Under the pieces are notes generated by a model. The model did not search any database. It saw nothing but the letters and a program-made list of their open reading frames with translations, and had not been told where the DNA came from. The position numbers and the translations under genes are program-made. Of a DNA stretch of 64,000 bases, positions 17,877-54,256 are shown in pieces. The DNA comes from a virus, in IMG/VR virus record IMGVR_UViG_3300032293_000766, positions 32,001 through 96,000 of that record; one strand, 5' to 3'. Position 1 is the stretch's first letter. The number at the start of each line of letters is the position of its first letter.

Positions 17877-17906
17877 ATGAAAGCTCTCGCTGGTGAGGTT
17901 CTATAA
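17877..17906 (+). CDS. Possible 9-codon leader ORF MKALAGEVL
   Basis: AAAGGA SD just upstream of ATG 17877; its TAA overlaps the ATG of 17906 (TAATG). Confidence 0.35.
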   Translation: MKALAGEVL

Positions 17907-18946
17907 TGGACTTTCAAAAGCGAGAGCTTTTTGTATTAAAAATTAGATTAGGTAAAATTAAAATACCAAAATTAAAATGTGAATTATATCCACCCACCAT
18001 TGAGGATAGGTTAGAGTCATGCGAAGTATATGATCAAGCGTACTTCAATGCTCTCAATGAAGAGATGATGACTGAACATCAAATGGCCGAGTGGATGATA
18101 GAACATAACTTATGGAGTCATCACGAAGAAAAAGACTTAGAAGGTATAAGAAAAAACATAGAAGATATTAAAGTAGAAGTATACAAGCTCAATAAAGAAA
18201 AAAATAAAGCCAATCAACTAAAGAGATATCTTAGGTCTATTGAAAAAAAGCTTAATGACCAAATAAACAAAAAAAACTTGTATTACTATAATACATGTGA
18301 AAGTATAGCCAATCTAGAGAAACTAAGATATTTAATTAAGCGTAATTGCTTACAAAATAATAGGATATGTGACTTAGAAGATGACGAATTAGACTATGTT
18401 CTAGATTGTTTCCGTGAGAGTATTTTATCGGAAGAAATAATAAGAGAAGTTTCGCGCAACGAGCCGTGGCGTTCTTTGTGGTTCATTAAAAATCACAATA
18501 AACAAGACGTATTTTTGAATCTAGATAGAGATATTACTATAAATCAACAAAATTTATTATTGTGGTCACAAACATATGATAATATCCATGAATCAATGGA
18601 CTGCCCAAGCGACGATGTTATAGATGATGATGATATGTTGGATGGATGGTTAATATTTCAGTCACGTAAAAGAAAACAGGAAAAGGTAGAGCAGGATATG
18701 GACAAAAAGATGAGTAGTAAAGTTAAAAATTCTTCTGAAGTATATTTAATGGCATCTAATATTGATGAAGCTAAAGATATAGAAAATATTAATTCATATC
18801 ACTCTAAGATGATTAAGAAGCAAAGGCAAGCAGTCATAAAGCACAGCGGTGACGCTGGCGTTACTCAGGATAAATTTCAAGACGAAATATTAGACCAGCA
18901 AGCTAAACAAAATCAACAATTTTTACAGAACGCTAGGAGGAAATAA
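17906..18946 (+). CDS. Putative tail assembly chaperone (paralog A)
   Basis: Charged helical protein between tube and tape measure genes; shares MT..(Q/E)...M...N.W and NT(C/A)E motifs with 19276-20139. Confidence 0.5.
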   Translation: MDFQKRELFVLKIRLGKIKIPKLKCELYPPTIEDRLESCEVYDQAYFNALNEEMMTEHQMAEWMIEHNLWSHHEEKDLEGIRKNIEDIKVEVYKLNKEKNKANQLKRYLRSIEKKLNDQINKKNLYYYNTCESIANLEKLRYLIKRNCLQNNRICDLEDDELDYVLDCFRESILSEEIIREVSRNEPWRSLWFIKNHNKQDVFLNLDRDITINQQNLLLWSQTYDNIHESMDCPSDDVIDDDDMLDGWLIFQSRKRKQEKVEQDMDKKMSSKVKNSSEVYLMASNIDEAKDIENINSYHSKMIKKQRQAVIKHSGDAGVTQDKFQDEILDQQAKQNQQFLQNARRK

Positions 18947-19275: not shown

Positions 19276-20139
19276 ATGAAAGAAAAGCAGAGACAAGTTG
19301 AAGTTAAATTGGAAGATGGAACAGTTAAGAAGGTTTTAGTCAAGAAACCTAGTAATAAGTTACTATCAGACGCCCAATTGCTTGGTGCCAAAGTGTGGAC
19401 AAATTGTACACGCGATGGAATTATGACAAAGAAAGAATTAGAAGTTTTTATGCGCAATAGAAACATTTGGGATTCTGAGAAAGATCAACAGCAACAGGCT
19501 TTAGTTGATTCTATATCTAACTTAGAAAGAGAACTTGCGCTAGGTACAGATGGTAAGTTAACTAAAAAGCGCGGTAAAGAAATTGCAATTTCTATGCGTA
19601 GACTTAGATTAATGTTACGTAATCTTATATCTGAAAGATTAAGTCTTGAGCAGAATACTGCCGAAGCTTTATCTGAAAATGCTAAGTTTGATTTTCTAGT
19701 TGCTAACTGCGTTTATCTTGAAGATGGCAATACAAAAGTGTATAATTCTCTAGAAGATTATAGCGCTAAAGCAGACGATGAAGTAGCCTATGCTTCTGCT
19801 AACGCTTTGGCTCAGATGATGTACTCTATAGACAAAGAGTTCGAAGAAAAACTTCCAGAGAACAAATTTCTTAAAAAGTTTAACTTTGTTAATAGTGATT
19901 TAAGCTTAGTAGATGCAGAGAATAACCTCGTAGATATAGACGGTAAAAGAATAGACAGCGAAGGTTATTATCTCAATGAAGATGGCAATAGAGTAGATTT
20001 AGAAGGTCATGTATTAGATTCTGATGGAGCTTTAGCTTTACAAGCAGAATATGTAGATGATGAATCTGAAGAAGTTTCTACTGAAGTAAAAGAGAAAGTA
20101 AAGAAAAAGGCGTCAAAGAAAAAAGAAGCGGACAGTTAA
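19276..20139 (+). CDS. Putative tail assembly chaperone (paralog B) with C-terminal D.(D/E)G repeats
   Basis: Immediately precedes tape measure; SD aaggag; motif similarity to 17906-18946. Confidence 0.5.
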   Translation: MKEKQRQVEVKLEDGTVKKVLVKKPSNKLLSDAQLLGAKVWTNCTRDGIMTKKELEVFMRNRNIWDSEKDQQQQALVDSISNLERELALGTDGKLTKKRGKEIAISMRRLRLMLRNLISERLSLEQNTAEALSENAKFDFLVANCVYLEDGNTKVYNSLEDYSAKADDEVAYASANALAQMMYSIDKEFEEKLPENKFLKKFNFVNSDLSLVDAENNLVDIDGKRIDSEGYYLNEDGNRVDLEGHVLDSDGALALQAEYVDDESEEVSTEVKEKVKKKASKKKEADS

Positions 20140-20170: not shown

Positions 20171-23100
20171 ATGTCCAGATTTGTTTTGACTGCTCAGTTA
20201 CAACTACAAGCACCAAGTAATGTTCGTCAAGTAGTAAATCAGATTCAAAGCCAATTAGCTGGCGTTAATGTTCCTATTAACATTCAGAACTCTGCTGTTG
20301 CTACTAGACAAATTAATCAAATAAAAGCTGCTACTAACGATGCCACTACTGCGGCAGAACGTATGGGTGCAGCTTTTGGTGTTTCGTTAAAAAGATTCGC
20401 TTCATTTTCTATAGCCACAAGGGCGGTAGGATTATTTACTAGCGGTCTAGCTGGAGCTATTAAAGACGCTATAGCTTTTGAAAGAGAATTAATTAAAGTT
20501 GCCCAAGTAAGTAATCAAAGTATAGCTTCATTAAAAGGTTTAACTTCTACTATAACTGAACTTGCTACGAGTTTAGGTGTAGAGTCTAAATCTTTGCTTG
20601 AAGTATCTACAATCTTAAAGCAGGCCGGTTTATCAGCTAATGATACCTCTATTGCTTTAAGAACACTAGCCAAAGCAGCATTAGCACCTAACTTTGATAG
20701 TATTACAGAAACTACTGAAGGTGCTATTGCTATTTTGGCACAGTTCGGATTGGGCGTAACGGCACTAGAAGGCCAACTATCTTCTATCGATGCCGTTGCT
20801 GGCGCATTTGCTGTTGAAGCTTCTGACTTAATTGACGTTATTAGAAGAACTGGTGGCGTGTTTAAATCATCTGGTGGAGATTTAAATGAGCTTATTGCCT
20901 TATTCACCAGCGTTAGAGCAACGACGCGCGAAAGTGCCGAAAGTATTGGTACTGGATTAAGAACAATTTTTACACGTATACAAAGACCAAAAACTATTGA
21001 GTTCTTAAAACAATTTGGTGTTGAGTTAGTTGATCTAGAGGGTAAGTTCGTTGGCCCATTTGAAGCAGTCAAGAGATTAAGTGCTGCATTAAATGGATTA
21101 GGAGAAGGAGATTTAACTTTTATACGTGTTGCTGAAGAATTGGGTGGCTTTAGACAGATCGGCAAAGTTCTCCCACTTTTACAGCAGTTTGCTATTGCCC
21201 AAAACGCTTTGAATGTAGCACAAAATGCTGGTAATGGATTGACACAAAATGCAGTAACCGCCCAACAGGCTTTAGCTATTCGCATTACTAAAGTAAAAGA
21301 AGAATTTCTTGCTTTCGTAAGAGGTGTTACAGAAAGTAAAGGTTTTCAATTATTTGTTAATACTGCACTAAATTTAGCCTCTGCTTTCATTAAGATAGGT
21401 GAAGCTTTAACACCAGTTATTCCACTTCTTACGGCGATGATGGCTATTAATATTAGTCGTGGCATAGGTAGTTTTTTAACTTCTATACCGCGCGGAGTCG
21501 CTTCTAATAGACTTAGTGGTGGTGGTAGAGTCTTAGGTTTTGAAAAGGGTGGAATGGTTCCCGGTGTTGGCAATAAAGATAGCGTACCGGCCATGTTGAC
21601 TCCCGGTGAAATTGTCATGAATCGTGCAGCTGTACAGAAATATGGTGCTGGTAATTTAGTAAAAATGAATCGCTCTGCTAGTGGTGGATATACTGTTGAA
21701 CAACTGAAAGATTCACAGAAAAAAATAATATCTAGAAGTCTTTATCCCACCTCTCCTACATCTCATTTAGAATTAAACGATAAAGTTAAAGCTAATATCG
21801 TACAAATGCCAGCTAACGAGCCACTGTCACCCGAAGAAATTGACAGTATAAGAAAAGCTTATCCAAGTTTAACTCCTGATCAAATGAAAAGAATTAAGGA
21901 TGGGAATCAGCGCAAATCTTTGATAGATATTCGCAAAAATCCACAAAGCGCTTCAAAAGAAGATATTACTTTATCTAAAGAATTTGCTAGAGCAGAACGA
22001 GTCTGGGGGCAGGCTTATGAGCAAGTATTAATAAATAGAAGCAAGGGCAAGGATAGTCAAGGTGAATTAAGCTTGGCAAACTCCGGTGATTTAAATTACC
22101 CAGTAGATGTAAAAAGAGGTAATGCTGGTTCTGAAACTTGGGGAGAAGTCAAGTTTAAAACTAGCAAAGAGCCTAAAAAAGACTTAACTGCTAAACTTCT
22201 TGCAAAAAAAATATTAGATAATCAGATAAATACATTATTTACTGAGAATAAACCAGATCCAAAAATTGACGATGTTGATTTAGGAATATTAGAATATTAT
22301 TCTGGCATATCTAAAGGAGATAGTCATAAATTACAGTTTTATAAAGGTCTAAGTTTAGGTGGTAGGGTTCAAAGATTTGAAGAAGGTGGCGTTGCTCAAC
22401 GCAGAGTTGGTATTATAGATAGTGACGTTCTTAGAGACAAGAAAAATGCAGCAAGAGTAGCTGAAGGCATGAAGCTATTAGATGCTAAATCTGAAGCTGA
22501 CTATGCTATTAAGCTGTCTAAACTAGCTGGCGAAGCAAGGCAGGCTGGCTCATTAAATAAATTTAGAGTTATGACTGGCGCTGCTGCAAATCGTAAAAGC
22601 AGTGTTGCTACTGGTCGCGGAGCTAAAGATGATGCCACATTAAGGAAAACAACTAGAAAACAAATTTTACATCCAGATGATTTAAAAGATGTTGATCAAG
22701 TCATGTCATTAACAACTACCCTAAAAGATTCTAAGTTAGACTATATGGGTATGGCTGATAGAATCTACGTCAAAGATTCTTCTACTGAAGATGAACAAAA
22801 ACTAGTTAAGTTATTTGAAAGACAACGCAATCTTCAAAAAGATCCTACTTTATACGGTAGGGAAACAGGAACTACTGAAGGTTTAAACCCAGACTATGGC
22901 TTACAAACAGCGTCACTAATATCACAATTTGGAACGACAGAAGATCGTACAAATAAAGGTAAGGTGATGACTCTTGGAGAAAAAACTGATCAATCTGGCG
23001 CTCCACGTTTTCAAGTAAGAAGAAAGCGTTTAGAAGAATTGCCAGAATTAGTTAGTGCTAAAGGTCAATTCCCCGGCGCAGCTTCCCCACTTACTAGAGG

Positions 23101-26100
23101 TCACGCTGAAACTGCTGTAGGCACACTACTTGCTAAAGTTAGGGAAAAATATCCAGACGCTACTCATAAAGATTTATTATTTGCTTTAGCTCCAGATTTA
23201 TCTTTGAGTGGTGGATCGCAAGGTAGGGAACATGGTTCAAGATATGGAGAATATCCAGCGTCATTTAGAAGAGATTTAATTAAGCTGGCTTTACCAGAGA
23301 TGATGATTTCCTCTGCCAATAGCGCATCTCAAACTGGTATTAATTCAAGAATTTCTGAAATTGAGAAGGGCGCTACTGGTCGAAGAAGATTTGCGGTAAT
23401 GGAAAAAGACGCCCCAGTTGTTATATCTAAAGCAGAAAATGAAAATCCAGAAGGCGTAATGGAAAGATATAGATCTGCTGGATTAACTCCATATAATATA
23501 GCTAGATCAGCTGATACTGAGGGGGATAGTATTAGCGGTACAGCCACAAGGCAAGCTGTAATTGATAAAGATTATGCCAAGTTAGATTTAGCCGTATTGC
23601 CACAAGTTGGTTCTGCTATTAAAGCTAATCAACCACAATTGCGCAATCGCAGGATGATGGTTCCACTAGTACAACAAGCTTTAGATATTTTTACACAGGC
23701 AAATGCTAGTAAGGTAAACGAACAGGTAGACAGTATATTGCAAAACGCTTCTGGTGGCCCGTTTACAAGGATGACTCCTAAATTTAAGGAGTCTCATCCC
23801 AATCTAGTTAAACAGATTAAACAGCTTAGAAGTAGTAGGGATATATTTGAAAGAGAAGCTTTCCTAGATCCGGCTCATGACTTAATTAGAATAATTAGTG
23901 ATAGATATCCAGATATGTATGGCTTAGATGTATCAAGAAAAGAGCCAGTAGATGTGCCTGTTACTGAAGATATGATTAAACAACATATTGTTGATGCTAG
24001 CAAGTCATCTTCTTATTTTAGACCCGGTTTATCTTTCAATGGTGATGGAATACAATTATCGCCAACATTACAAAAAGTTAAGGACGCTGTTGATAAAGAA
24101 GTAAAATCTGAAGTTGTTGCTGAACCGACAGTAGAGAAAGAAATAGTAGCCCCAAATAGTAGAAGTGACATATTTAAGATTTTATCTAGAGAAGAGGCCG
24201 CAGCTGCTTCTGGCGTGAGTGGAATTAAAGCCTATGATATTATGGGTATACGTAGACCGCTAACCCCAGACGAACAAAAGGTTAAGGATGCTATTAAGGC
24301 TGCATATGTTAAAAAGGTCAAGCGTCAAGGGGCATCAGCTAAAGCCCAGACAACTAAATTAAGAGAAAAGGGATTAGAATTTGGCGCTGCTGGATTATTT
24401 GGAAAAGCTTTTGCAGCTAAAAATATTAAAATTGAATCTGATAAATTGTCTAGCTCAAGAATGGTTAGAGTTAATAGTGGCGTAATGGATCAGGCTACAG
24501 CCACAAGACTTAGTACAACAATGAGCCAAGGCGTTAGTGACATTATTAGTAAAGGTACTAATATAGTTAGGGCTGGACAGTCAAAATCGCCTCCAACGCA
24601 AAATCCACTTCAAGGATTAAATACTAATACTAATGCCACTATTCAGGGTGGATTAATAGAGCAAATAATTCAACAGCTAGGTGGCCCCGGTGCCGTTAAG
24701 GGTAAAGGATTTGACTTTCCAGAAGGATTGCAGGGTGCTGCTAAGTATTTTAATATAGATCCAAGCATTCCAACAGACGTTAAGAGAACTCTATCTGGCC
24801 CCTCTACCATTAAAGATAATATAGTTACTTATCTTAAAAATGTAATGGGTTATAATAGTGGTGGATTAGTACAGAAATTTCCTATAGGTGGCAGAGTATC
24901 TAGAAAAGTACCTTATGACGAGGTTGAGGGCGATCCATTTGCTAAAGCAGCTAATAGTAACACGCTTGGATCTTCAGCTTATGATTTAGAAAAAAGTAGC
25001 GGTTTAAGTCCTACCGAGTTTGAACAAGCTTACCAATACGCTAAGACCGCTCAGTTTAACATTGAAGAATTCAAAAAAGATTTAGCTAGAAGATTAGAAG
25101 CTAAAAAACAAAGATCTCAAATCAAAACTGATTCGTCTAGTATGTTGCAACAATTAATGCAACAAACTAAGACATCTACAGATAAACAAATAGCATTAGG
25201 AAAAACATTACAGGATACTTCTAATGATATAGGGTATAGGCCATCCGAATTAGAAAGAATAGCTCAAGCAAGAGCAGATATTAGTAATGCCATTCAACCT
25301 ACAAGAAGGAGAATGGGTGGTCGCCTTGGTTTTGAAACTGGCGGTACTGTTCCAGCTTTAGTTAGTAATGGTGAAGCTTATGTTCCACCAGCTATGGCTA
25401 AAAAGATAGGTTACGGAAAACTCAATAGGATGAATCAGGCAGACCGTAATGGTATGGGGCGATTTAGCGAAGGTGGCATTAGCGTATTCAAGGGGCCGGG
25501 AAGTGGTACTAGTGATAGTATTCCCACTAATTTACCAGTTGGTAGTTTTATAATACGAGAGAAGGCTACTAAAGCATTAGGATTGAATAGAGGGGGAAGT
25601 GTTGGTGGCGTTAGAAGATTTTTTAAAGGTGGTCAAAATACAAAAGATGCTAGCAGAACAAAGGGTTATACTTCTTATGCAAATATAGAAGATGCTGCAA
25701 ATGATTTTGCGGATATAATTGGTCAATTAGGTCCAAGAATCGCTCAAGATATTCAAAAAAGATTTCAAGGCATTGAAAATGTACAGGCTGGACAAACACC
25801 GAAGCTATCTAAAAAACCTATGAAAGAAGGAATGCGCGGTGCAGCTGTCATTAATTCTCAAGGGCAGACATCAATGGCTTTACAAATACAAGGAGCGAAT
25901 GCTGCTGCTAACAGTAACACACTTGCTCATGAAACTGGTCACTTAGCAGACTTCTCACTCGGTGGAGGTAAAGAACTAGCAAGTAAAACAGAAGGTACTT
26001 TTCAATTTGACTTGGTTGAAAAAGTTAAGCCTATTATGATAAAAGCTTTTGAAGCAGCGGGTGAATCAGCACAAAGAATTGCAGAATATTGCGCTTCAAA

Positions 26101-29100
26101 TGAAGAGTTATTTGCAGAATTTTTTGCTAAAGCTAGTCCAGAAGTTAGGGCTATTATAACATCAACAACGGATTCCAAAAAAGGAATGGAGCAATTAGCT
26201 AATATCTTAGGGAAAACTGGATACACATACGCAGGATTAGAAGCTTCTGATATATCAAAGCCGCGACCTCAAACAAAAGCGGCATCTATGGGTATGTCTA
26301 CTGCTGACGTAATAAATCAAGCAAAAGTTCTGTCTATTCCTTCTTCTTTCAATATAGGTGGGTTAACTGGGCCAACCAGTGTACCAACTGGGTCAACCAG
26401 TGTGCCATCAGCTGGACCGTTACCAGAAGAAGATTGTGTTAAGTTATGTGATCCAGTACTAGATAAATTAAATAGTACTCTTAGTGAGTTACTAAAGGCT
26501 ATACAAGCTTTATCTTCATCTAGCACTCCATTTACGCCTAGCGCATCAGTATCGCCACAACAATCGCAGCCACCAGACCCACAAATGAGTAAAGCAGAAG
26601 CTACAACATTAGCGAGTACACCTAAAAGTGATATGTTTAAAAAGTCTACAGAAGAGTTAAGTACAGCACAAAAGGTCTTACAAGCAGACTTTGCCGCACA
26701 AAGAGACGCTCTTAGAGCAACTGCTACTAGTGCGTCAGAATACAAAAAGAAATTAGAAGAAATTGATAAAGAAGAAAAAAATAGATTAAAAAATATCAAT
26801 AAAGAATTAAAGACTAGAGAAGAAGCCCCAGCTAAAACTGCTGAACGTAAAGCCGAACGTAAAGCTGAACGTGAAGCTGATAACAATTTAAGTAAGGTTA
26901 CAGGAGCAATTAGTAGCGGTCAAGGCTATCAATTAAAAAATGAAGAACTTGTTTCAGCAAATAAAACAGTACAAGATCGTGCTAGTAAAGCTAGAGATGA
27001 AGCTAGACAAACTTCAACTAGTCAAAAAGATTATGATCAACGTGTCAAGACTATTAATGAAAATGAAGACAGTCAACTTAAAGGAATAAATAGAGAAGCA
27101 AAAAATCGTGGCATTAATTTAAGTGGTGGCGAAAAATCTGACAAGGGCATGTTTACTTTCAGTCAAGCTCTTACTGGCGCTAGTGCTGCTTTAAATGGTT
27201 TAATACAAACTGCTGGCGGTACTGATGATGCCTTTGGTCGTATTGCAAGTTCTGTACTATCTTCAGTTACTGCTATTAGTAGTTCGCTTTCTGTATTAGA
27301 ACAATTATCTGGTATTGAAATAAAAGGTTTTGGAGACATAGCTAAAATACCACAAGAATTAGGTAAATCTTTTGCTAATATTGGAGCTACTTTAGATGCT
27401 AAAATATCAGAATTTTCTGGTGGAAGAATATCTAGTTCTTCTGTTGGACTTGAAAAACTCTTTTCTTCCTTGGGTGCTGTTGCCGGTGTCGTTGGCATAA
27501 CTGCCGCTGCGTTTTCCGCAGCTGCTGGCGTGTTGTATTCTACTAGCACAACAGTTGCTGAATATGACAAGGCAATGGCAGATGGGAATATAGCATTAGT
27601 TGGTACTTTATCAGCTAAAAAAACAGCTGAAGAAGATATTATTAATAGTGGAGGAATATTTGCTGCTGGAATAGTTGCAGTTGCTGCGATAGTACCTATA
27701 TTTTTAGCAGCTGTAACATCAATGATACCTCCATTGGCTGGACTTTCAACTAGTTTATACGCTCTTGCTGCTCCAATAGCTGCTACTGTTGCCGTTGTTG
27801 TTGCTGCTGGTGCAATATTTTTATATGCTACTGGTAATTTGGAAAATTTTGCAAATGGAGTTAGAAATATTGCGTCAAGTTTAACCGGTGGTTGGATACA
27901 GAGTACTTCAACAATTCAACAGTTTGCTCAAGCCACTGCTGCTACTTCTCATACAATGAAATTGATGCAAGATCAAGCTAAACAAACTACACAATCTCTT
28001 AAAGACTTATCAGAAGGTAGAAAGAGCGCAAAAGAAGTATTGAATCAATTTTCTGGACAGGCAAAATCTGCTGCCAATGCTCAATTCTTAGCAGAAGCTT
28101 TACCGGAAGATACAGCTAAAGAGAAAAAAGCCAAAGATAAGGCAATTGATGAAGCTAATAAGAATAAAGATAAAGTTTTGTCAGACGCCGCACCAGCTAT
28201 TAATTCTCAAGCTAGAAATATAGCTATCGCTGGCGGAAATTTCGCTGACTTTTTTGCTAGCTTACCAAAAGAATTACAAGCAATTTATAATCAAAATCCA
28301 GAAGAATTAAAATTACTTAAAGAAGCTTTTGGTAATACTGCTAAAGAAGTTGAAGTTGCTAGAAAACAATTTGAAGCAATGAATCTTGGTTTTAGAAATG
28401 TAACTTCTGTAACTGGCGCTGCTGTAAATTCTGTTACAAATTTTACTGCTGGGTTACAAGCTGGGAATTTGGCTGTTGCTCAATCTGCTAATACATTGGC
28501 AGCTTCTCTTACGTCTGCTGGAGCAAATATTAGTACAAATGATTTTAATAATGCTTTGAGTGATGTTACAGGAACTATGGCCTCTCTTGGCGCTAGTGAT
28601 CAACAAATTTCAAAATTTAAAGAAAATCTTACAGCTTTGGCGCAAGTTCAGAGAAATGCTAGTGGAATTTTTGATCAAGTAAAAGATCAAATTAAAGCTG
28701 GTGGATTCCAAGGTATGAGTCCAGAAGCCGCTGGAGAAAGCTTCCGTAAATTAGTTGATGATCAATTAAAAGCTTCTGGAATTGGTGAAGAAGCTCGTAA
28801 AAGAATTGGTGACGCTTTAGGCGATATTGAACTTGGCGATAAAGAGAGGCAACAAATTGCTGCCGGTGATTACAGTTTCTTAACTAAGAAACTAGAAGAG
28901 GCTGGTGTTGGTATGACCGCAGAGGTAAATCAGATGGTATCTGATTTGCAAAAGGTAAATTCTGAATTAAATACTTTATACAAACAAAGAATTGACTCTG
29001 AACGAGCTTTAGTCGAAGCTCAACGTCAAGCTATTTCATTAACCTTAGAAGGTCTTGATATACAAGCCAAATACGGTGGCAATGCCGTCACTCCAGAAAT

Positions 29101-30478
29101 AAGAAAACAAGCAGCATTAGAAAGCGCAAACGTTGGAAGGAGGGCTGCTGGATTAAATGATATAAGAGGTTCAGACCCTGCATCTTTACGTGCTGGATTA
29201 AATCAAATTCGTGGAAATTTTTCTGGATTAGAGCAAAAAGCTTTGCAGGGCAAAGTTTCTGGCCAAGAGGGCGTAAAAGATGAAGGAATGAGAGAAAATC
29301 TCAAGAAAGCCCAACAGGATCAAATAAAGTTAATTAAAGATTTAATATCCGCAGAAGAAGAACAACTAAGACTTACTAAGGAAAAAAATAAGTTAGAAAA
29401 AAGTTCTTTAGAATCATTATTGTCTGGAGATATTGATAAGTTCTTTGAGCAACAGGCTGCTGTTGGCGCAACCGCAGCTATAGCAAGCGGTAATCGCGCA
29501 GCTATTGGTCAGTTTGGAGGTCAAGCATTATCTGGAGCTTATCAGAATTTACAATCTCAAAAAGAAGCTGGAGTAACTGAAGTATTTGGTCAGAGAATAT
29601 CTGGGGCCGGTGGATTACTAGAAAGTTCTGCTATGGCTTCACTTGGAGCTAGGGGCATACAAAATCCAAGAATGGCGCAAATATTAGCTGGTACTACTCC
29701 AGAGGAAGAGGCTAGTAGTAGAAGACTAAGGGAATATGGTGGATTACTAGGTGAAGCTGGTGCCGCTGGTGCTGAAATGGCACAAATGGAATTAGCGCGT
29801 GCAGACATGAATATTGCTAAAGCTACTATAAAAATAGAAAATGGAGGTTTTGATACAGATATTTTAAGTAATGAACCACAAGGTAGAAGTCGCGGTGGAA
29901 TCGTGTATGCTAGTAAAGGACAGCTTATTAATTTTGTTCCAAAGGGAACAGATACCGTTCCAGCCATGTTAACTCCCGGTGAATTTGTAATAAATAGAGG
30001 CGCTGTAAATCGTGGTGATAACTTATCTTTCTTAAGAGCTATTAATAATGGTAATTATACAGCAAGCGCACAAAGATTAAACAGCAACAATACTTCTATT
30101 CCTAATATTATGAAACAATTAGCTGGTAGTCCACAGGTAATACAAACTCAGGATACTCAAAGGAAAATGGTTCAAAATGAACAAAGTATATCAAATGTTA
30201 ATTTTGACGTACAAAAACTTTCTAAGCAACTCGGCAAATTCATGTCAGGATTTGATGGATTTATGGAAAGTTTCTCAAATCAAGTTGGAAAGCTAGGCAA
30301 TACTGAGGTTTCTCATAAGATGGGAGATGTAAATCTTAATATTAATGGAGGCCAGTTCTTACAAAGCATGGCCGATGGATTAAAGCAACAGTTAATGCAA
30401 GATTTAGGACAACAATTGCAGAGTATAAAAATAAATAACGTTGGTAATATTAAACTAGGAAGAACATCTGTATTATAA
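20171..30478 (+). CDS. Tape measure protein (TP901/PhageMin_Tail-type N-terminus) with internal enzyme-like cargo domains
   Basis: AFERELIKVAQV...ESAESIGTGLRTIFTRI tape-measure core; Ala/Gln-rich helical regions; hydrophobic segments about 27470-27830; repeated D(S/T)VPAMLTPGE motifs. Confidence 0.9.
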   Translation: MSRFVLTAQLQLQAPSNVRQVVNQIQSQLAGVNVPINIQNSAVATRQINQIKAATNDATTAAERMGAAFGVSLKRFASFSIATRAVGLFTSGLAGAIKDAIAFERELIKVAQVSNQSIASLKGLTSTITELATSLGVESKSLLEVSTILKQAGLSANDTSIALRTLAKAALAPNFDSITETTEGAIAILAQFGLGVTALEGQLSSIDAVAGAFAVEASDLIDVIRRTGGVFKSSGGDLNELIALFTSVRATTRESAESIGTGLRTIFTRIQRPKTIEFLKQFGVELVDLEGKFVGPFEAVKRLSAALNGLGEGDLTFIRVAEELGGFRQIGKVLPLLQQFAIAQNALNVAQNAGNGLTQNAVTAQQALAIRITKVKEEFLAFVRGVTESKGFQLFVNTALNLASAFIKIGEALTPVIPLLTAMMAINISRGIGSFLTSIPRGVASNRLSGGGRVLGFEKGGMVPGVGNKDSVPAMLTPGEIVMNRAAVQKYGAGNLVKMNRSASGGYTVEQLKDSQKKIISRSLYPTSPTSHLELNDKVKANIVQMPANEPLSPEEIDSIRKAYPSLTPDQMKRIKDGNQRKSLIDIRKNPQSASKEDITLSKEFARAERVWGQAYEQVLINRSKGKDSQGELSLANSGDLNYPVDVKRGNAGSETWGEVKFKTSKEPKKDLTAKLLAKKILDNQINTLFTENKPDPKIDDVDLGILEYYSGISKGDSHKLQFYKGLSLGGRVQRFEEGGVAQRRVGIIDSDVLRDKKNAARVAEGMKLLDAKSEADYAIKLSKLAGEARQAGSLNKFRVMTGAAANRKSSVATGRGAKDDATLRKTTRKQILHPDDLKDVDQVMSLTTTLKDSKLDYMGMADRIYVKDSSTEDEQKLVKLFERQRNLQKDPTLYGRETGTTEGLNPDYGLQTASLISQFGTTEDRTNKGKVMTLGEKTDQSGAPRFQVRRKRLEELPELVSAKGQFPGAASPLTRGHAETAVGTLLAKVREKYPDATHKDLLFALAPDLSLSGGSQGREHGSRYGEYPASFRRDLIKLALPEMMISSANSASQTGINSRISEIEKGATGRRRFAVMEKDAPVVISKAENENPEGVMERYRSAGLTPYNIARSADTEGDSISGTATRQAVIDKDYAKLDLAVLPQVGSAIKANQPQLRNRRMMVPLVQQALDIFTQANASKVNEQVDSILQNASGGPFTRMTPKFKESHPNLVKQIKQLRSSRDIFEREAFLDPAHDLIRIISDRYPDMYGLDVSRKEPVDVPVTEDMIKQHIVDASKSSSYFRPGLSFNGDGIQLSPTLQKVKDAVDKEVKSEVVAEPTVEKEIVAPNSRSDIFKILSREEAAAASGVSGIKAYDIMGIRRPLTPDEQKVKDAIKAAYVKKVKRQGASAKAQTTKLREKGLEFGAAGLFGKAFAAKNIKIESDKLSSSRMVRVNSGVMDQATATRLSTTMSQGVSDIISKGTNIVRAGQSKSPPTQNPLQGLNTNTNATIQGGLIEQIIQQLGGPGAVKGKGFDFPEGLQGAAKYFNIDPSIPTDVKRTLSGPSTIKDNIVTYLKNVMGYNSGGLVQKFPIGGRVSRKVPYDEVEGDPFAKAANSNTLGSSAYDLEKSSGLSPTEFEQAYQYAKTAQFNIEEFKKDLARRLEAKKQRSQIKTDSSSMLQQLMQQTKTSTDKQIALGKTLQDTSNDIGYRPSELERIAQARADISNAIQPTRRRMGGRLGFETGGTVPALVSNGEAYVPPAMAKKIGYGKLNRMNQADRNGMGRFSEGGISVFKGPGSGTSDSIPTNLPVGSFIIREKATKALGLNRGGSVGGVRRFFKGGQNTKDASRTKGYTSYANIEDAANDFADIIGQLGPRIAQDIQKRFQGIENVQAGQTPKLSKKPMKEGMRGAAVINSQGQTSMALQIQGANAAANSNTLAHETGHLADFSLGGGKELASKTEGTFQFDLVEKVKPIMIKAFEAAGESAQRIAEYCASNEELFAEFFAKASPEVRAIITSTTDSKKGMEQLANILGKTGYTYAGLEASDISKPRPQTKAASMGMSTADVINQAKVLSIPSSFNIGGLTGPTSVPTGSTSVPSAGPLPEEDCVKLCDPVLDKLNSTLSELLKAIQALSSSSTPFTPSASVSPQQSQPPDPQMSKAEATTLASTPKSDMFKKSTEELSTAQKVLQADFAAQRDALRATATSASEYKKKLEEIDKEEKNRLKNINKELKTREEAPAKTAERKAERKAEREADNNLSKVTGAISSGQGYQLKNEELVSANKTVQDRASKARDEARQTSTSQKDYDQRVKTINENEDSQLKGINREAKNRGINLSGGEKSDKGMFTFSQALTGASAALNGLIQTAGGTDDAFGRIASSVLSSVTAISSSLSVLEQLSGIEIKGFGDIAKIPQELGKSFANIGATLDAKISEFSGGRISSSSVGLEKLFSSLGAVAGVVGITAAAFSAAAGVLYSTSTTVAEYDKAMADGNIALVGTLSAKKTAEEDIINSGGIFAAGIVAVAAIVPIFLAAVTSMIPPLAGLSTSLYALAAPIAATVAVVVAAGAIFLYATGNLENFANGVRNIASSLTGGWIQSTSTIQQFAQATAATSHTMKLMQDQAKQTTQSLKDLSEGRKSAKEVLNQFSGQAKSAANAQFLAEALPEDTAKEKKAKDKAIDEANKNKDKVLSDAAPAINSQARNIAIAGGNFADFFASLPKELQAIYNQNPEELKLLKEAFGNTAKEVEVARKQFEAMNLGFRNVTSVTGAAVNSVTNFTAGLQAGNLAVAQSANTLAASLTSAGANISTNDFNNALSDVTGTMASLGASDQQISKFKENLTALAQVQRNASGIFDQVKDQIKAGGFQGMSPEAAGESFRKLVDDQLKASGIGEEARKRIGDALGDIELGDKERQQIAAGDYSFLTKKLEEAGVGMTAEVNQMVSDLQKVNSELNTLYKQRIDSERALVEAQRQAISLTLEGLDIQAKYGGNAVTPEIRKQAALESANVGRRAAGLNDIRGSDPASLRAGLNQIRGNFSGLEQKALQGKVSGQEGVKDEGMRENLKKAQQDQIKLIKDLISAEEEQLRLTKEKNKLEKSSLESLLSGDIDKFFEQQAAVGATAAIASGNRAAIGQFGGQALSGAYQNLQSQKEAGVTEVFGQRISGAGGLLESSAMASLGARGIQNPRMAQILAGTTPEEEASSRRLREYGGLLGEAGAAGAEMAQMELARADMNIAKATIKIENGGFDTDILSNEPQGRSRGGIVYASKGQLINFVPKGTDTVPAMLTPGEFVINRGAVNRGDNLSFLRAINNGNYTASAQRLNSNNTSIPNIMKQLAGSPQVIQTQDTQRKMVQNEQSISNVNFDVQKLSKQLGKFMSGFDGFMESFSNQVGKLGNTEVSHKMGDVNLNINGGQFLQSMADGLKQQLMQDLGQQLQSIKINNVGNIKLGRTSVL
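26366..26407 (+). repeat. Imperfect 21-bp tandem duplication (TGPTSVP/TGSTSVP)
   Basis: actgggccaaccagtgtacca followed by actgggtcaaccagtgtgcca. Confidence 0.7.
26840..26880 (+). repeat. Imperfect 12-bp tandem repeat x3 (AERK AERK AERE)
   Basis: gctgaacgtaaa gccgaacgtaaa gctgaacgtgaa gctga. Confidence 0.7.
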
Positions 30479-30487
30479 GGATAATGA

Positions 30488-33400
30488 ATGCCCACATTTT
30501 GTTTTTGCTCATCTAGATTAGACGGCGAAGGCCCAATACCTATAGTTGCATCTAGCTTCTTAGAAGCAGATTTGACTGTACAAATGTCCTACAGCCCTAA
30601 GTTCGAAACATTTTCTAATTTTGGTCTATATATTAAGTCTTTAGGATTAACTAGGTTAATTGCAGAGGCTAGTATACCACAACAGAATTATAACATTACG
30701 CATAGTGTTGTTTCTGCACTTTTAACCAATGCGTCTATAAGCGATAATATTAATGTTGAACTTTATTCTAAATCAAATTTTTCTACAGATTCAGAATTTA
30801 TAGCTTTAGCAGATAAGATTAGTGGTAATATATTTGAAGATAATATAGAGCAACTAGATAATGACAACTTCTTCGCTGCTCCCGTTAATGGTACTCAAAA
30901 GTTATATCCAGTACAAGATTTAATTACGTCGTATAATGGGCAAGTTTTAGTTAATGAAAAATTACAAACCAGCGATCTATTTAACAGTATCAACGGTGGC
31001 ATTTTCGTTGGCGATTTTAGGAGCGATGGTAGAACTATAAGTGACACACTATCTTATATTTTACCATCCTCAGTTAACATTGGTGGACATTATAGATATA
31101 AAGCTGTAGTTGAAAATCCCAGATTAACACCAAAAGAGAGTAGACTGTTTATTAGAGCAGCGGCCCCGCTTTTTGGTTCTAATGATACAGATGAAAGTAT
31201 TCCTAGATACACAATATCGAATATTAAATTTGAAGATCCAAGTGGCAACTTAATTATTCAGTATAGAGATATTGAAGTTCGCGGTGATGCAAATTTTGAT
31301 AACGCTCCAGAGAATATTAGCTACACAACATACATCACTAGACCTATTAAGAATAATGCCATATTAGCAACCCAAGATATTAATTATCCAATATTAAATT
31401 CTAATGGTGACTATACTCTCACGTTTGACATTATTATAGACAGTAATGACGCCCCATTTAATTTAGGTTTTAATGAGGGATTTGATGACGATATTCCAAA
31501 TGATAATGTTATTATTGATGAAGATGATTATTTAAGTATTGGATCGCCTTTTTCTACAATATCACAAGAAGCTATCAATCCTATAAATAGCATAAGAATA
31601 TCAGAGATTGAAATATTTAATTTTGGTGCAGCTAACATAGTTAACGACACATACTTAAATTGTTATACTGAGGTTGATTTAATAGGAGAAAGATTAGAGA
31701 GATTCTTAAGCCCACAAATTCTACTACCATATGACCATAATAATAGAATACATCCAAGCGTTAATACTATTTGGGCATCTTCTCCAGATAGTAGCGGAGT
31801 AAGATTATTTAATACTAATCAAGAATTATCAAATCAAATTGTAGGAAAAATTATTAATGATAGTGATGATGATTATATAGAATTAGTTTCTAGCTCTATA
31901 CTAGATTCTGGCAAGCTACATTTAGTTTTTACTCATAAGACATTAGAATCATTGCTAGTTTATCGCGGTGGAGCATTTAGAGAGTTGAGTAATTCTTTTA
32001 GTTTAGCCGAATTAGTTAACTTGCCTCCTATTAATGAATACTTCTTAGTAGATGAAGTTTATCTTAGAGTCAAAGCCAAAAAAGCTATAGGATCAAGAGA
32101 CTATGCCATAGACGTTGTTGGTTATAGTGATGATAAACTATTAAATGTAACATCTCAAGTCGGTGGATTCTTGCAAAATGATATAGGTGGAAGCGGATCA
32201 ATACCATATGTTTCTGGATTTGCTCCAACTAATTCACTTGGATTATCTAGCGAGTCCATATCTGATAATTATCAGTATTATCAAAGAGACGAGCGACTAA
32301 ATGTTGGTGGAGATCACTATAGATTATCACCAAATATTGTTAACTCAACTTCTTTCAGAGAATACAAAATCCCACTTAAGATATATCAAGATATTGGTAG
32401 ATTAGGTCAACCTCAAGAGTATGGATTAAGCAATTATTTTGAAAGTCTATATCTAGATATCTATCCATTACCTAGTGGAGCCTCTATATCTTCAATACAG
32501 CTTGTTGTTAAGTACAAGCCATCAAATGGTTTAAATATGCATACTATGGGTGAGCCACAGTATAACCAAAAAAATAATTTGAGATTATTCCCAAGAGATG
32601 TACTTTACCCGTCTAATAATTTGCCGCTTTCATATATAGATCTTATTCCACACGCTTATGATACGCCAACTACATTTAAGCAAAATTATTCAAGACGATG
32701 GAGGGGCGCGGAAGGTATATCTACATCATCATTCAAGCAATCAAATTTTGATGACTTTGGCTTTGAGCGATCATACCTTAATTCACCTTTTATATCTAGT
32801 AATTACGAGTTTAAGGATATAAGCAACAACTTAGTTATTCCAGATAAATATACAAGCGGTTCCGGTGTAGCAAACCATACAATCAATAAACTAGAGAATA
32901 TTGGATGGAGATTTAATAGTAATTCATTGTTCAACCAACCAACGCCTTATAGAACTATTGATTGGACTAGCATTAGTGGATATGAGACACACGCCTTACG
33001 CGGTAAGATATCTGACTCATTTGACTGTGCTATTAGAATGTCTGGATCAAATTCTATTGATTTCCAACCATTTGAATCTTCTGGCGGATTTGCGACTTAC
33101 ATAAGATTTTCACCAGACAAAGATAATAATTTTCAATCTGGAGTTTTGTTTTCACATTATAATACCAGCAACGAATTGCTGTTTCTTGTTGGATATTCTA
33201 GCGGATACTTATTTGCTCAAGCTAAAAATAGTAGTGGAAACTTTATTAGTCTATATGATAATACTATTTATAGCAATTACTCTTATCCATTAAATGTTGT
33301 TTTAACATACGACAATAACCTATCAACACTAAATCTATGTACTAAAAACGAGTTAGACAATTTACCTATCAAGATCTTCACTGCTAATAACTTCACTATC

Positions 33401-36400
33401 GCCAACGGCTCTGGCAGTCTATTGCTTGGTGGATTCAATAGTTTTATAACGGATTTTGGTTTTTCTAATCAATGTAATCTACTTACAGTAGATAGTAATA
33501 GCAATGATAAAGATGTTGGTATTTATAGATTCTTTGACGCAATTACAAACAACAAAGCGGTTAACCATAAACTTAGCACATTCATAGATGAAAGCTTAGA
33601 TAGTTGGAGCTTTGGAGAGTTTAGGCACAGAGATTTCGCATCTAGCGAATTCTCAACATTATCTAAGAGAGATGGTTATGACTTTATATACTTTGACATT
33701 AAGAATGACGGGCTTCCATATGCTCAAAAAATAAATACTCCACTAGCATCTGGTTTTTCATCTAGCAATTTGTCATACCATTCTCAAATAGAAAATGATT
33801 TTCTTAGAATTCACTTAAGTGACGCTCCAGACAATTTCTACGCTGCCGCTGTTAGATTAAGTAAGACGTTGCCACAGGGTTATGATTTTGTAGAAGATGC
33901 ACTTTTAGTTGAAACTGTTTTAGAATATACTTCTAGCGGGAACGTTATTTGGCCGAATGGTAAAACTGGCCCCAAATTAATAGTCAGTTTATATACAACA
34001 AATAAAGATCCAAGTAGTTATAGCGCAAAAAACTTTGGATTAATAAATCGCGGTGTGCATTATTTAGACAGTAAAGACGCTATAGTAATGCTACAAACAG
34101 GATTTGATTTTAATTCTTTTGTTGACGATTCAGAATCTTGGTCTATGTTTCCAGAAGAAAAAAGAATAACCGAATTTAATCACAAGTATTTTTCTAAAGA
34201 TTTAGATGATATGTTTATTCAATATGATATTGAGTATCCTTCTGGAAATCCATATTACTCTAATCTTAGAATTAATACTGTAAATGTAAGCTTAGATAGT
34301 TATATATCCAAAAAGCAAAACTTTCAAACAAGCGTTGATATCATTACTAATGGTGCGCAGTATGAGTTTAATTTTCTAAATTTTGTTGTTTCTCCCCACG
34401 AAGAAAACGTACAGAGCTTAATATTGCACGTTGATGGTTGCCCAATTTATTCATTAGATCCAGCATATTTATCTACTTATATAGCTGGCGCTTCTGGCGT
34501 TGAAGACATAAGCCTACCTCTATACATAGGCGCATTTACAGAATCTAGTTTTGGTTCTGACGGAGATTTATTTGGCTCATTGTTTCCAAACGCTATGGAC
34601 TTGTACATCTCTGGTCAATATGTGGAAAATGAATTTTTGGTAATGCGAACACAGGCTCCAGGTTTATTTGTATATAAAATGAACTACAGGTTGCCGCTTG
34701 TGACGTTTGACAAGTTTAGCTACTCCAATAACGCGCTGCCTTTATTTATTAGACCAGAAATAGCTGATGAATTAATATTTAGAGTCAATTCCACATTTAA
34801 TCTATATACAGAAGTAACACAAATAACCGTACTTAATTCTTACCTGAATTTAAATACAGCAAACTATCCCACCATTTATAGCAATGATGCATCATTAAAT
34901 TCTTATATCGAAAGTCGCTATGCTTATGACGGCTTAAAGCAAGGTAAGAAACAATTTTTATGGAATGGAATAGATACTGGGCTAGAAATAGAATTTGATG
35001 ATAATTTTTATGCTAATATACCAGTTGGGAATGAAATTCGTGGCGTAGAACTGATATGCTTTGGTGATTGCAGTAGAAGTGGCACATGCATTGAAAAGGG
35101 CATATATACACATGAAACTCAGTGGACAGAAGATAGATGCGTAGATGGTGGAATTTTTAGAGCAAAATCTACATATACAAACCCCACCGCTTCTGGATTT
35201 GGAAATACGATTGGATATAGTGGTAATTACTATGGAATTAGAAAATATACTGGACTTGTTCCTTCTGCGCCATATTTTATCTCTGCTAAATCACTCACTG
35301 GTAATGATGATTTCAATTTAGTTCCACCAAAATTTGAAGAGTGGGAATACGGCACAAATGATAATGTGGCTTTTTCTGGCACAAAAATTGTAGCACCCAA
35401 TAGGATAGAAAATGCTCAATTTGGTTATTCTATTGCTACAGCAAAAAATGTTGCAGTTGTCGGAGCGCCTAAAGAAACAGTATATGATAATGGTAGCGGA
35501 GTAGATAATGCTGGTGCGCTTTATGTATATAGAAGACTTGATGAACCAACTCTTAATAGTGGCAGTCTTAGTTCAGATAAAACTGGGTGGGGTTTTGAAG
35601 CAAAGCTCACGCTCCCTTCTGGATATATATTAGACTATCCTATTCCATATGGCACTACATCTCCTATACCGGGACTTCCTATTCCTCTTACTAAGTGGAA
35701 TGTTGGTCAAGAGGGAAGAGAGTTAGGCACTTCTGTCGCAATTGGAGTAAATAATGATATAAAATCATATGGAGAAAATAATAGGCAAATCATAGTAGCT
35801 GGTGGGCCTAAAGCAGAGTTTACGCGCACATTTGATGATATTACAACTAATAAGGTAAAGGCTTGCATAATTGTTTTTGCTGATGAGTTCAACCCTAATG
35901 ATGATGGATATTGGCAAAATATGTATGGATTTGATAGACAAATAGGTGAAAAAACAAACAGAAATAATACTCTATATAAGTACTACGCAAGGCCACCCTT
36001 GGAAATAGAAACAAAAATCTTAGTTATTCAACCAACAGGAGCGTTTTCTGAAATATATTACAGTAACTTTAGAAGAAAAAACTACTTATATCACACAACT
36101 ATCCCGCGTACTAATAATAAGCAATATCAACTAAACAAAGCTGCTATAGATAACACAATGCTAAGTGGCGTTATCAATTTATTTCTTGAGGCTTTTCAGC
36201 CTAATTCTGGAATAATACATAATAATATTCCTGTTACAATAGGTATCTTTTGCGATAATAGTAAATCACTTAGTCGCCAATCTGTACAGCCCCTAATTTC
36301 TAATTTTACTAATTGGTATAGAGAATATAGTTACGCTAGTGGCTTGAAAAACTTCTATCAAGTTCCAACTAGTGGTAATGTGTATGAATTTTTTCCTGAC

Positions 36401-53536: not shown

Positions 53537-54256
53537 ATGGCTGAAATATTGTTTTTTGCTAACGAAGTAGGATCAAATGGAGATTACCAGATAGCCCACA
53601 CGGCTGGCTCTGGACTTGGATTCTATGGCTTGACATATGGCGCATCTGTACCAATTGGTAATCAACAGTCTACAACATTCGTTACTAATTCTAATGGTAC
53701 ATCAACAGAGAGATTAGAGCTAAACAATACCGCTAAAGTTTCTGTGGGTGATACAACTACTCCCGGTCGCGTTGTAATAAATAGATCTTCTGAAGTAGCT
53801 TTAAATAATCTGCCCAATAATAAATGTCCTCTAAACGTTAGATTTGTGCATAATGAGTCTGTTAGAGTGCAAAATTGTAAGTTAAGAATATTCGATAGAA
53901 ACAATATTAATAATCATGCTTCTGGCGTAACAACATACGTGTACGAAGCAAGACATCCATCTCCAGACCAAGGCGTTAACAATCTTGCGTATCGCGGAAG
54001 AACAGCAAATACTTGGGTTGAATTTGACCCAACTGATGGTGGATCTCCAGCAGATATGTTATGTACAGATTCTCCAGGCATGAGTGGTAAAAATACTTCT
54101 GCTCAAGATACCAATATATCATTAGGATATACAACTACTGAAGGCGCTGCCCACTCTTCACTCAGACATGATTGGTATTTAGCGTTAAGCTCTGAACCAC
54201 AAAGCATAGGAAGTAAAACAAATTACGGACTCTATTTCACCGTAGAGTATCTATAA
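53537..54256 (+). CDS. Putative virion structural protein
   Basis: 239 aa, strong SD aaaggag, preceded by promoter motif, beta-rich, ends HDWYLALS...YGLYFTVEYL. Confidence 0.6.
   Translation: MAEILFFANEVGSNGDYQIAHTAGSGLGFYGLTYGASVPIGNQQSTTFVTNSNGTSTERLELNNTAKVSVGDTTTPGRVVINRSSEVALNNLPNNKCPLNVRFVHNESVRVQNCKLRIFDRNNINNHASGVTTYVYEARHPSPDQGVNNLAYRGRTANTWVEFDPTDGGSPADMLCTDSPGMSGKNTSAQDTNISLGYTTTEGAAHSSLRHDWYLALSSEPQSIGSKTNYGLYFTVEYL

Follow-up and report, generated by a model that had tools for sequence, protein, structure and literature searches.

Described carriers of exchangeable domains

Tape measure proteins (TMPs) are usually viewed as rulers and channel formers of the phage tail that carry at most one cell-wall enzyme. 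Here we describe a giant TMP, P0001, encoded on the plus strand of a 64,000-nucleotide stretch of viral DNA (positions 32,001 to 96,000 of IMG/VR record IMGVR_UViG_3300032293_000766; the window), which belongs to the 135,211 bp single-contig genome of an uncultured phage. P0001 consists of a TMP frame with fenced, independently folding and exchangeable modules, and we think it fairly probable that it is a cassette-type, cargo-carrying TMP in which a conserved junction peptide separates one exchangeable module from the next.

In MARTX toxins a single giant polypeptide carries several effector domains in a row; the domains are exchanged between strains and released by interdomain cleavage, for which a cysteine protease domain cuts after leucine. 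P0001 resembles these secreted bacterial toxins in its swappable effector array, but MARTX toxins are not part of a virion and there is no sequence relation between the two. TMPs with embedded enzymes, such as T5 pb2, lambda gpH and the TMP of mycobacteriophage TM4, share with P0001 a frame that contains hydrophobic segments. The known cases have one cell-wall enzyme and one cut, whereas P0001 has at least five modules of apparently cytoplasmic-type chemistry and its family exchanges modules freely.

The polyvalent proteins, as characterized in the body of Iyer et al. 2017 (PMC5512222), are like P0001 very large and virion-associated, contain strings of unrelated enzymatic domains and display extensive mosaicism. 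Their domains include ADP-ribosyltransferases, nucleotidyltransferases and zincin-like metallopeptidases, the latter proposed to act as processors (PMC5512222). With a kinase-like plus HIGH nucleotidyltransferase unit and a zincin-like domain, P0001 contains the at least two unrelated enzymatic domains by which a polyvalent protein is recognized. MuF, portal, N4 virion RNA polymerase, DarB or relaxase proteins provide the frames of the polyvalent proteins, and a TMP that of P0001; the term 'tape measure' has no occurrence in the text of that paper, supplements aside (PMC5512222). A conserved junction peptide that fences the domains, which the P0001 family has, is likewise not described for polyvalent proteins in that text. 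Packaging of P0001 and its transfer into the host with the DNA would follow from its identity as a TMP and from the known ejection of such proteins. A TMP-derived frame as a reconfigurable domain carrier is also found in Sle1 (Nagakubo et al. 2026, PMC13277306), which, in that paper's main account, differs from P0001 in that it has a single C-terminal functional domain, belongs to an intracellular Streptomyces tail-like particle, lacks an array of junction peptides and is not a phage ruler. No published description of TMPs with cargo arrays was found in the literature searched, supplementary files aside.

A tape measure frame with exchangeable modules

P0001 is a TMP of the TP901 type. PF10145 matches aa (amino acids) 127-312 (E 1.4e-22, 81 bits against a cut-off of 33.2) and is the sole Pfam family on the protein at E<=1, TIGR01760 matches aa 89-379 (E 1.1e-28, 100.3 bits against a cut-off of 28.8), and PHROG TMP families match aa 16-440. 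The roughly 1600 aa of non-tape-like sequence reported in an earlier note, made from the sequence of the window, lie at aa 447-2040. By amino-acid composition aa 2100-3100 are rich in helix-formers, and 19-residue Kyte-Doolittle windows in the membrane-type segments peak at 2.66. A word-based search gave 140 giant proteins, of which the 120 listed (1988-6001 aa), most of them carrying PF10145, were used as relatives and compared with P0001 through their BLAST high-scoring segment pairs (HSPs). The layout of the gene is as follows, where 'head' and 'body' are the two elements of the junction peptide (see below).

20171..30478, plus strand: gene of the tape measure protein P0001, a single open reading frame (ORF) of 3435 aa
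20171..21508, plus strand: N-terminal TMP core (aa 1-446), kept in 88-117 of the 120 relatives
21509..21688, plus strand: junction unit 1 (head, body and trailing SASGG; aa 447-506), with 67 HSP ends at aa 501-510
21689..22345, plus strand: module A (aa 507-725), with conserved D537, E617, P644-x-D646 and E659-x-K661
22346..22393, plus strand: head 2 (aa 726-741, GLSLGGRVQRFEEGG), where HSP starts gather at aa 721-730 and folded B1 begins right behind
22394..23920, plus strand: module B1 (aa 742-1250), predicted P-loop-kinase-like domain, HIGH-type nucleotidyltransferase and helical C-terminal part
23921..24847, plus strand: spacer with modules B2 and C (aa 1251-1559; C is aa 1485-1559)
24848..24895, plus strand: head 3 (aa 1560-1575, GYNSGGLVQKFPIGG), in coil, with 25 HSP ends at aa 1571-1580
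24896..25303, plus strand: module D (aa 1576-1711), with a small helical bundle at aa 1600-1655
25304..25633, plus strand: composite junction (head, body, FSEGG, second body, head; aa 1712-1821), in up to 101 of the 120 relatives
25634..26290, plus strand: module E (aa 1822-2040; zincin-like domain aa 1834-2029), with H1920-E-T-G-H1924 and ELFAEFFA
26291..27130, plus strand: serine- and proline-rich, charged helical tail of the E cassette, ending in LSGG (aa 2316-2320), read from sequence
27458..27844, plus strand: hydrophobic membrane-type segments (aa 2430-2456 and 2489-2558), by Kyte-Doolittle
29882..30064, plus strand: C-terminal junction unit (RSRGG and body DTVPAMLTPGEFV; aa 3238-3298), where HSP starts and ends gather

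By sequence comparison, the relatives gain, lose and replace modules, with the breaks clustering at the junctions. The six modules occur in 31 presence/absence combinations among the 120 relatives; module C is the stretch most widely shared among the modules (78 relatives), module D is present in 40 and module A in 32. Coverage is high on junction unit 1 and low on module A (about 110 relatives at aa 451-500 versus 32-34 at aa 551-700), and the same pattern is seen between the composite junction (98 at aa 1751-1800) and module E (28-29 at aa 1851-2000). Among HSPs of at least 150 aa, 222 of 410 ends lie within 15 aa of the junction regions, which make up 12% of the protein. Right after the composite junction, at aa 1821-1830, there are 45 HSP ends, and the C-terminal junction unit collects 152 HSP starts (aa 3231-3250) and 131 ends (aa 3291-3300).

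In the frame that they have in common with P0001, the five closest relatives among the matches listed, P0002-P0006, are 74-92% identical to it, except for one HSP of P0003 (46%). The N-terminal core is 91-92% identical in P0003, P0005 and P0006, and in P0002 and P0004 it lies inside longer first HSPs of 74-82% identity. Homology breaks at aa 506/527, 708/728, 1576, 1707, 1821 and 2318, and a GG is found no more than 5 aa away from 15 of the 25 internal breaks (12% would be expected). The break at aa 1821 is common to all five, that at aa 1576 is found in P0004 and P0005, and P0002, P0004 and P0005 regain homology at aa 2318-2319, at the LSGG. The comparison of relatives that the earlier note had suggested thus gives the outcome it predicted, with differing module content and breaks of homology at the motifs.

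The junction peptide

The eight GG motifs that the earlier note had taken as module boundaries are real, in frame and far above chance, each beginning one codon (3 nt) downstream of where it had been placed (aa 448, 502, 727, 1561, 1713, 1765, 1805 and 3239). They comprise two elements. The head follows the pattern (Y/L/F)xxGGx(V/I)xxFxxGG, with the consensus (Y/L/F)(N/S/A)xGG-x-(V/I)-Q-K-F-A-x-GG. The body, of roughly 40 aa, follows D(S/T)(V/I)PAxLxPGEFV...G..L..N, with the consensus VPGxGxxD(S/T)VPAMLxPGEFVxNxxAVxxxGxxxLxxxN, and is often ended by a further xxGG. Body units start at aa 470, 1725, 1782 and 3261; these are the four D(S/T)(V/I)P..L..GE units noticed before, and two of them are degenerate. 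SASGG, FSEGG and RSRGG, previously counted as motifs of their own, are present as flanks of body units, not as separate elements, and an extra GG boundary, the LSGG at the end of the E cassette, had been overlooked.

A strict head expression, GG.{1,3}[VIL].{1,3}[FYWLM].{1,3}GG, matches P0001 four times versus 0.13 per shuffle (1000 shuffles), and the body expression four times versus 0.003. The 121 family proteins (533,464 aa) contain 573 heads versus 20.8 in shuffles, and 362 bodies versus 0.3. The fifth paired motif of P0001 (aa 1805-1821) matches only under a looser pattern. Among 391 heads, position +3 is V or I in 95% and position +6 is F, L or Y in 94%, a conservation which suggests that the head has a role at the protein level and is not a plain spacer. 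The heads at aa 1560-75, 1712-27 and 1804-21 fall in coil with a predicted local distance difference test (pLDDT) score below 50 in AlphaFold2 (AF2) models, and the junction heads are predicted to be flexible.

The 135-kb genome has 214 stop-to-stop frames of 80 aa or more; apart from the TMP, these gave no more than two head-like matches, each of them single. A 420-aa frame at genome positions 30991-32250, ending at window position 250, has one head-like GGRVVGLPTGG near its C-terminus, which may be due to chance.

Enzyme-like modules

The modules are not plain coiled coil, in agreement with what the earlier note had proposed. The AF2 model of module B1 (20-row alignment) is a globular alpha/beta fold with a pLDDT of 87.7 and a predicted template modelling score of 0.83, and is folded from the second residue past head 2. 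Its layout is a kinase-like domain from aa 742 to about 958, a nucleotidyltransferase domain at about aa 958-1166 and then a helical part. In VIA-align, model residues 217-425 superpose on NMN adenylyltransferases and PPAT (NadM 2qjo, Z 12.8; NMNAT 1f9a, Z 12.3, root-mean-square deviation (rmsd) 3.0, 155 of 164 residues aligned; PPAT 4nah, Z 11.8; TmcAL, Z 11.0, 210 aligned, C-terminal helices included), and Foldseek against the PDB returns the same families (E about 2e-3, probability 1.00). In addition, 22 matches at E<=0.001 in a viral library (BFVD) are mostly phage cytidyltransferase-like proteins, and the ESM Atlas gives a weak lead (0.75) that is cytidylyltransferase-like. The signature motifs are T975-x-G977-H978 and I1121-S-G-T-A-T-R1127; alignments of 34 and 20 sequences show no variation at P973, G977, H978, S1122, T1124 and R1127 and hardly any at T975. 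One relative, P0168, passes PF01467 (26.6 bits against a cut-off of 21), and PF16581 is found below threshold in four of the five relatives scanned and in relative P0048. Model residues 3-217, folded within the whole of B1, match P-loop kinases weakly (zeta toxin 6epg, Z 7.2; 1ukz, Z 6.2).

Module B1 is thus confidently folded as a predicted two-domain enzyme, kinase-like plus HIGH nucleotidyltransferase of the NMNAT/PPAT/TmcAL kind, and the nucleotidyltransferase of the earlier note is borne out by fold and motifs. It shares T-x-G-H, I-S-x-T-x-x-R and the Rossmann-type fold with the HIGH nucleotidyltransferases (NMNAT/NadM, PPAT, TmcAL and phage 'cytitidyltransferase' genes), but differs from them in having no stand-alone sequence relative, in following a kinase-like P-loop domain and in being embedded in a TMP. 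Leads to its substrate are NAD-type salvage, as in NMNAT, and RNA-directed adenylate chemistry, as in TmcAL. From its sequence matches, B1 appears to occur almost only inside giant proteins: a search of 1.84 billion representatives gave 67 matches, of which 55 have a length of 1900 aa or more, and most of the shorter ones sit at a protein end, as contig-end fragments would. A search for shorter proteins with B1 gave a 598-aa fragment only, tblastn of B1 against 50,697 phage records and an IMG/VR scan for module B found no relative, and a PDB sequence search with module B (aa 742-1480) gave no match at E<=1 or E<=10.

In module E, HETGH (aa 1920-1924) and ELFAEFFA (aa 1979-1986) are more than 90% conserved in a 29-sequence alignment; a metal-binding glutamate presumably lies downstream of the HExxH, by analogy with M34-type zincins. 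The AF2 model of aa 1480-2040, a 561-aa segment, is poor overall (mean pLDDT 59.4), with aa 1480-1597 at low confidence, and has a zincin core at aa 1835-1880 and 1910-2020 (pLDDT 74-92 over aa 1910-2020). The model weakly suggests a zincin-like peptidase, nearest to the M34 peptidases. For this module, too, a PDB sequence search found no match at E<=1 or E<=10, and tblastn found none in the 50,697 phage records. HExxH occurs in 60 of the 121 family proteins, versus 1 of 121 when shuffled, and in at least three sequence types, so that peptidases appear to be a common but not universal cargo of the family. A second zincin-type motif, (L/F)YHE(L/M)THQL, is present in 23 family proteins (for example P0003-P0009, P0011 and P0016), and P0003-P0006, four of the five closest relatives, carry this type instead of module E. 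A third, GVLAHE(T/S)FHDIQG, is present in four.

Module A keeps the order E617, P644, D646, E659 and K661 in a 33-sequence alignment. It may be nuclease-like, as the earlier note had it; the basis is this E..PxD..ExK pattern, which is PD-(D/E)xK-like, and the module has no match in the PDB, in the ESM Atlas or among shorter proteins. A second nuclease-like module resembling A was rejected, as hhalign of A against B2/C gives a probability of 0.14%. Module D has a pLDDT of 81-92 over aa 1600-1650 and generic three-helix matches only (Z<=5.8). In relative P0048, a TMP of 3965 aa, an ADP-ribosyltransferase domain (PF03496, aa 1538-1653; 31.6 bits against a cut-off of 23.4) lies between heads at aa 1240-1250 and 1677-1687.

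Possible processing sites or structural joints

The body unit is not confined to this lineage. A phmmer search of the PDB with aa 441-512 matched three TMPs, including gp16 of mycobacteriophage Douge (E 1.8e-5, two copies) and lambda gpH (residues 732-784, E 0.13). A hidden Markov model (HMM) of 352 family units matches gpH 733-789 (20.0 bits; E 2.7e-8 in a one-sequence search), directly following the glycine-rich stretch of gpH. In addition, tblastn of the unit finds TMPs of Clavibacter and Nodularia phages and cyanomyophage proteins, 22 records in all. By these comparisons the unit is homologous to the one in lambda gpH. A PDB sequence search with the C-terminal 205 aa of P0001 gave no match at E<=1 or E<=10. 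The structural account of lambda gpH has about 14 kDa being lost from its glycine-rich C-terminal region on conversion to gpH*, and leaves residues about 690-817 of gpH unresolved (PMC12617516); in the Douge TMP, residues 1658-1699 only are resolved. Since the gpH stretch to which the unit is homologous lies next to the cleaved region, processing is our leading, if tentative, candidate for the role of at least some junctions.

T5 pb2, according to the account in PMC10038345, is cut after R1127, which parts a hydrophobic stretch from an enzymatic domain, and carries an HExxH metallopeptidase. A GG, a dipeptide of which pb2 has only five, follows 3 residues after R1127, and the context of the cut (aa 1111-1145), FVPR|AEGGMMYPG...MGEHGTEVV, resembles a head plus body, by eye only.

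We propose that a normal TMP frame, made up of the N-terminal core (aa 1-446), the membrane-type segments, a long helical C-terminal half and the C-terminal lambda-like unit, encloses about 1900 aa of separate modules, each of which would be fenced by the junction peptide (a head, often with a body). The modules would be stored in extended form inside the tail tube. At infection the TMP would exit the tail with its C-terminus first, its membrane segments would help to form a channel, and the N-proximal modules would enter the cytoplasm just ahead of the DNA, where they could act with cytoplasmic cofactors such as ATP for the nucleotidyltransferase and NAD for the ADP-ribosyltransferase of P0048. 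Junctions that are not cut would instead serve as flexible tethers.

A stronger version, which we regard as unlikely, is that heads and bodies are a multiplied form of the ancient TMP processing signal behind the conversion of gpH to gpH*, and that the TMP is a polyprotein which releases strain-specific enzymes into the cytoplasm ahead of the DNA. Cuts would be made at each junction, after ejection or during tail maturation, and the nucleotide-directed transferase, the zincins, the ADP-ribosyltransferases and the nuclease-like modules would form a kit for pre-expression takeover or counter-defence.

It is also conceivable, if somewhat doubtful, that the junctions are never cut and serve as structural joints, in which glycine hinges flank a short strand for packing or docking in the tail tube, at the tip or on assembly chaperones, the modules remaining one tethered multi-enzyme polypeptide after ejection. 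The body unit is ancient and is found in ordinary TMPs without cargo (lambda, Douge, the third TMP of the PDB search, and the Clavibacter and Nodularia phages), one unit always lies some 150-200 aa before the C-terminal end, which is where TMPs dock to the tip, no single protease is found throughout the family, and the V and F within the GG hinges suit a strand-addition motif as well as a protease site. However, the homologous lambda stretch lies at the gpH*/gpHC cleavage region, the mapped T5 cut falls next to a GG (a likeness by eye, without a profile match), and the up to ten junction regions held by a single family protein are hard to explain by one docking site.

Far less probable is a role of the modules in tail assembly or envelope penetration, and not as host-directed cargo, in the manner of the muralytic metallopeptidase of T5 pb2 or the peptidoglycan hydrolase motifs of mycobacteriophage TMPs. 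The TMP-embedded enzymes known from the accounts of lambda and T5 are indeed cell-wall hydrolases (PMC12617516, PMC10038345), and module E looks like a peptidase-type zincin; but the nucleotidyltransferase and kinase-like fold of B1 needs nucleotides and the ADP-ribosyltransferase of P0048 needs NAD, and no function in the periplasm or in assembly is obvious for either of them. That the GG motifs have no protein function and are DNA-level recombination hot spots or scars, as the clustering of breaks at them might suggest, is scarcely credible, since the DNA of the five P0001 heads shares only short runs such as GGTGGT, the body units are 38-62% identical to each other in DNA, the residues are conserved as amino acids among relatives down to 25-30% identity, and the unit extends to lambda. 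Because head DNA has only such microhomology while V and F are kept as amino acids, the joints look selected at the protein level and the head would be read by a protein, be it a protease or a docking partner; the recombination joints of the earlier note hold as swap points, but not as DNA recombination signals.

Several observations weigh against the cargo-carrying TMP that we favor. Many domain boundaries coincide with GG motifs, as the earlier note had supposed, but those near aa 1250, 1440-1500 and 2030 lack a GG head. HSP ends are imprecise and the relatives share ancestry and are not independent, so that the statistics of junction enrichment overstate the case. Cutting the 121 proteins by regular expression gave 516 internal segments in 255 clusters, 170 of them singletons, and of 22970 segment pairs only 1391 covered each other to 80% or more; since the expression misses degenerate heads and coiled-coil cross-matches inflate the pairs, this clustering was used neither for nor against the proposal. 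The P0001 modules have no Pfam match at E<=1, PF01467 included. The P-loop of the earlier note holds in part: the Walker A of B1 is canonical in the family consensus (GVAGSGKST) but degenerate in P0001 (GAAANRKS), with the lysine kept and the preceding glycine lost, and the GxxxxGK[ST] of P-loop kinases of the zeta toxin and NMP kinase type is absent from P0001. Fold matches of module E are weak (PPEP-2 6fpc, Z 7.3, rmsd 3.3, 133 aligned; anthrax lethal factor catalytic domain 1yqy, Z 7.0; 9g0j, Z 6.4), Z below 8 being inside the stated background of the alignment tool, and its best Foldseek E is 0.059. A zincin acting in cis was rejected as the general processing enzyme, because only the 60 proteins noted above have an HExxH and carriers of the E type do not have more heads (mean 3.74, versus 4.97 in proteins without it). 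The lambda match is modest, the unit itself is not resolved in any solved tail, and the unit HMM has no match to T5 pb2 at E<=10. A folded 55-kDa module in three or six copies is too big for a tail lumen of about 4 nm, so that the modules would need unfolded or extended storage.

Neighboring genes

The gene order around P0001 is compatible with a place between tail chaperones and distal tail genes. Among the 20 neighboring ORFs one weak tail-fiber match to PHROGs was found and the rest have no match; megablast of the TMP gene against the 50,697 phage records also gave none. Two plus-strand ORFs just upstream, at 17906-18946 (346 aa) and 19276-20139 (287 aa), occupy the usual site of the tail chaperones and have no Pfam or PHROG match. 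Directly after the TMP gene there is an ORF of 3828 aa (30488-41974, plus strand), followed by ORFs of 593, 271, 1600 and 1317 aa, all without a PHROG match; these are presumably the distal tail or fiber set of a very divergent phage. Judging by its domains (fn3, five Laminin_G_3 stretches, DUF285 and RCC1-like repeats), a 3029-aa plus-strand ORF that precedes the tail genes (4967-14056) resembles a giant adhesin-like or decoration protein. The GC skew flips from +0.17 to -0.24 near 54000, where the genes change from the plus to the minus strand.

Implications for phage tails

In at least 120 metagenomic relatives the ruler appears to hold arrays of cytoplasmic-type enzymes that are fenced by one junction peptide, and the tail is probably a vehicle that carries ready-made enzymes, in a changeable set, into the host. 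If true, this would give long-tailed phages a general and evolvable way of delivering proteins ahead of all gene expression, in parallel to the head-packaged polyvalent proteins and to the MARTX toxins. The homology of the unit to gpH beside its cleavage region would also provide a testable candidate for the long-unknown gpH cleavage signal, and the junction peptide may mark natural insertion sites for engineering cargo into phage tails.

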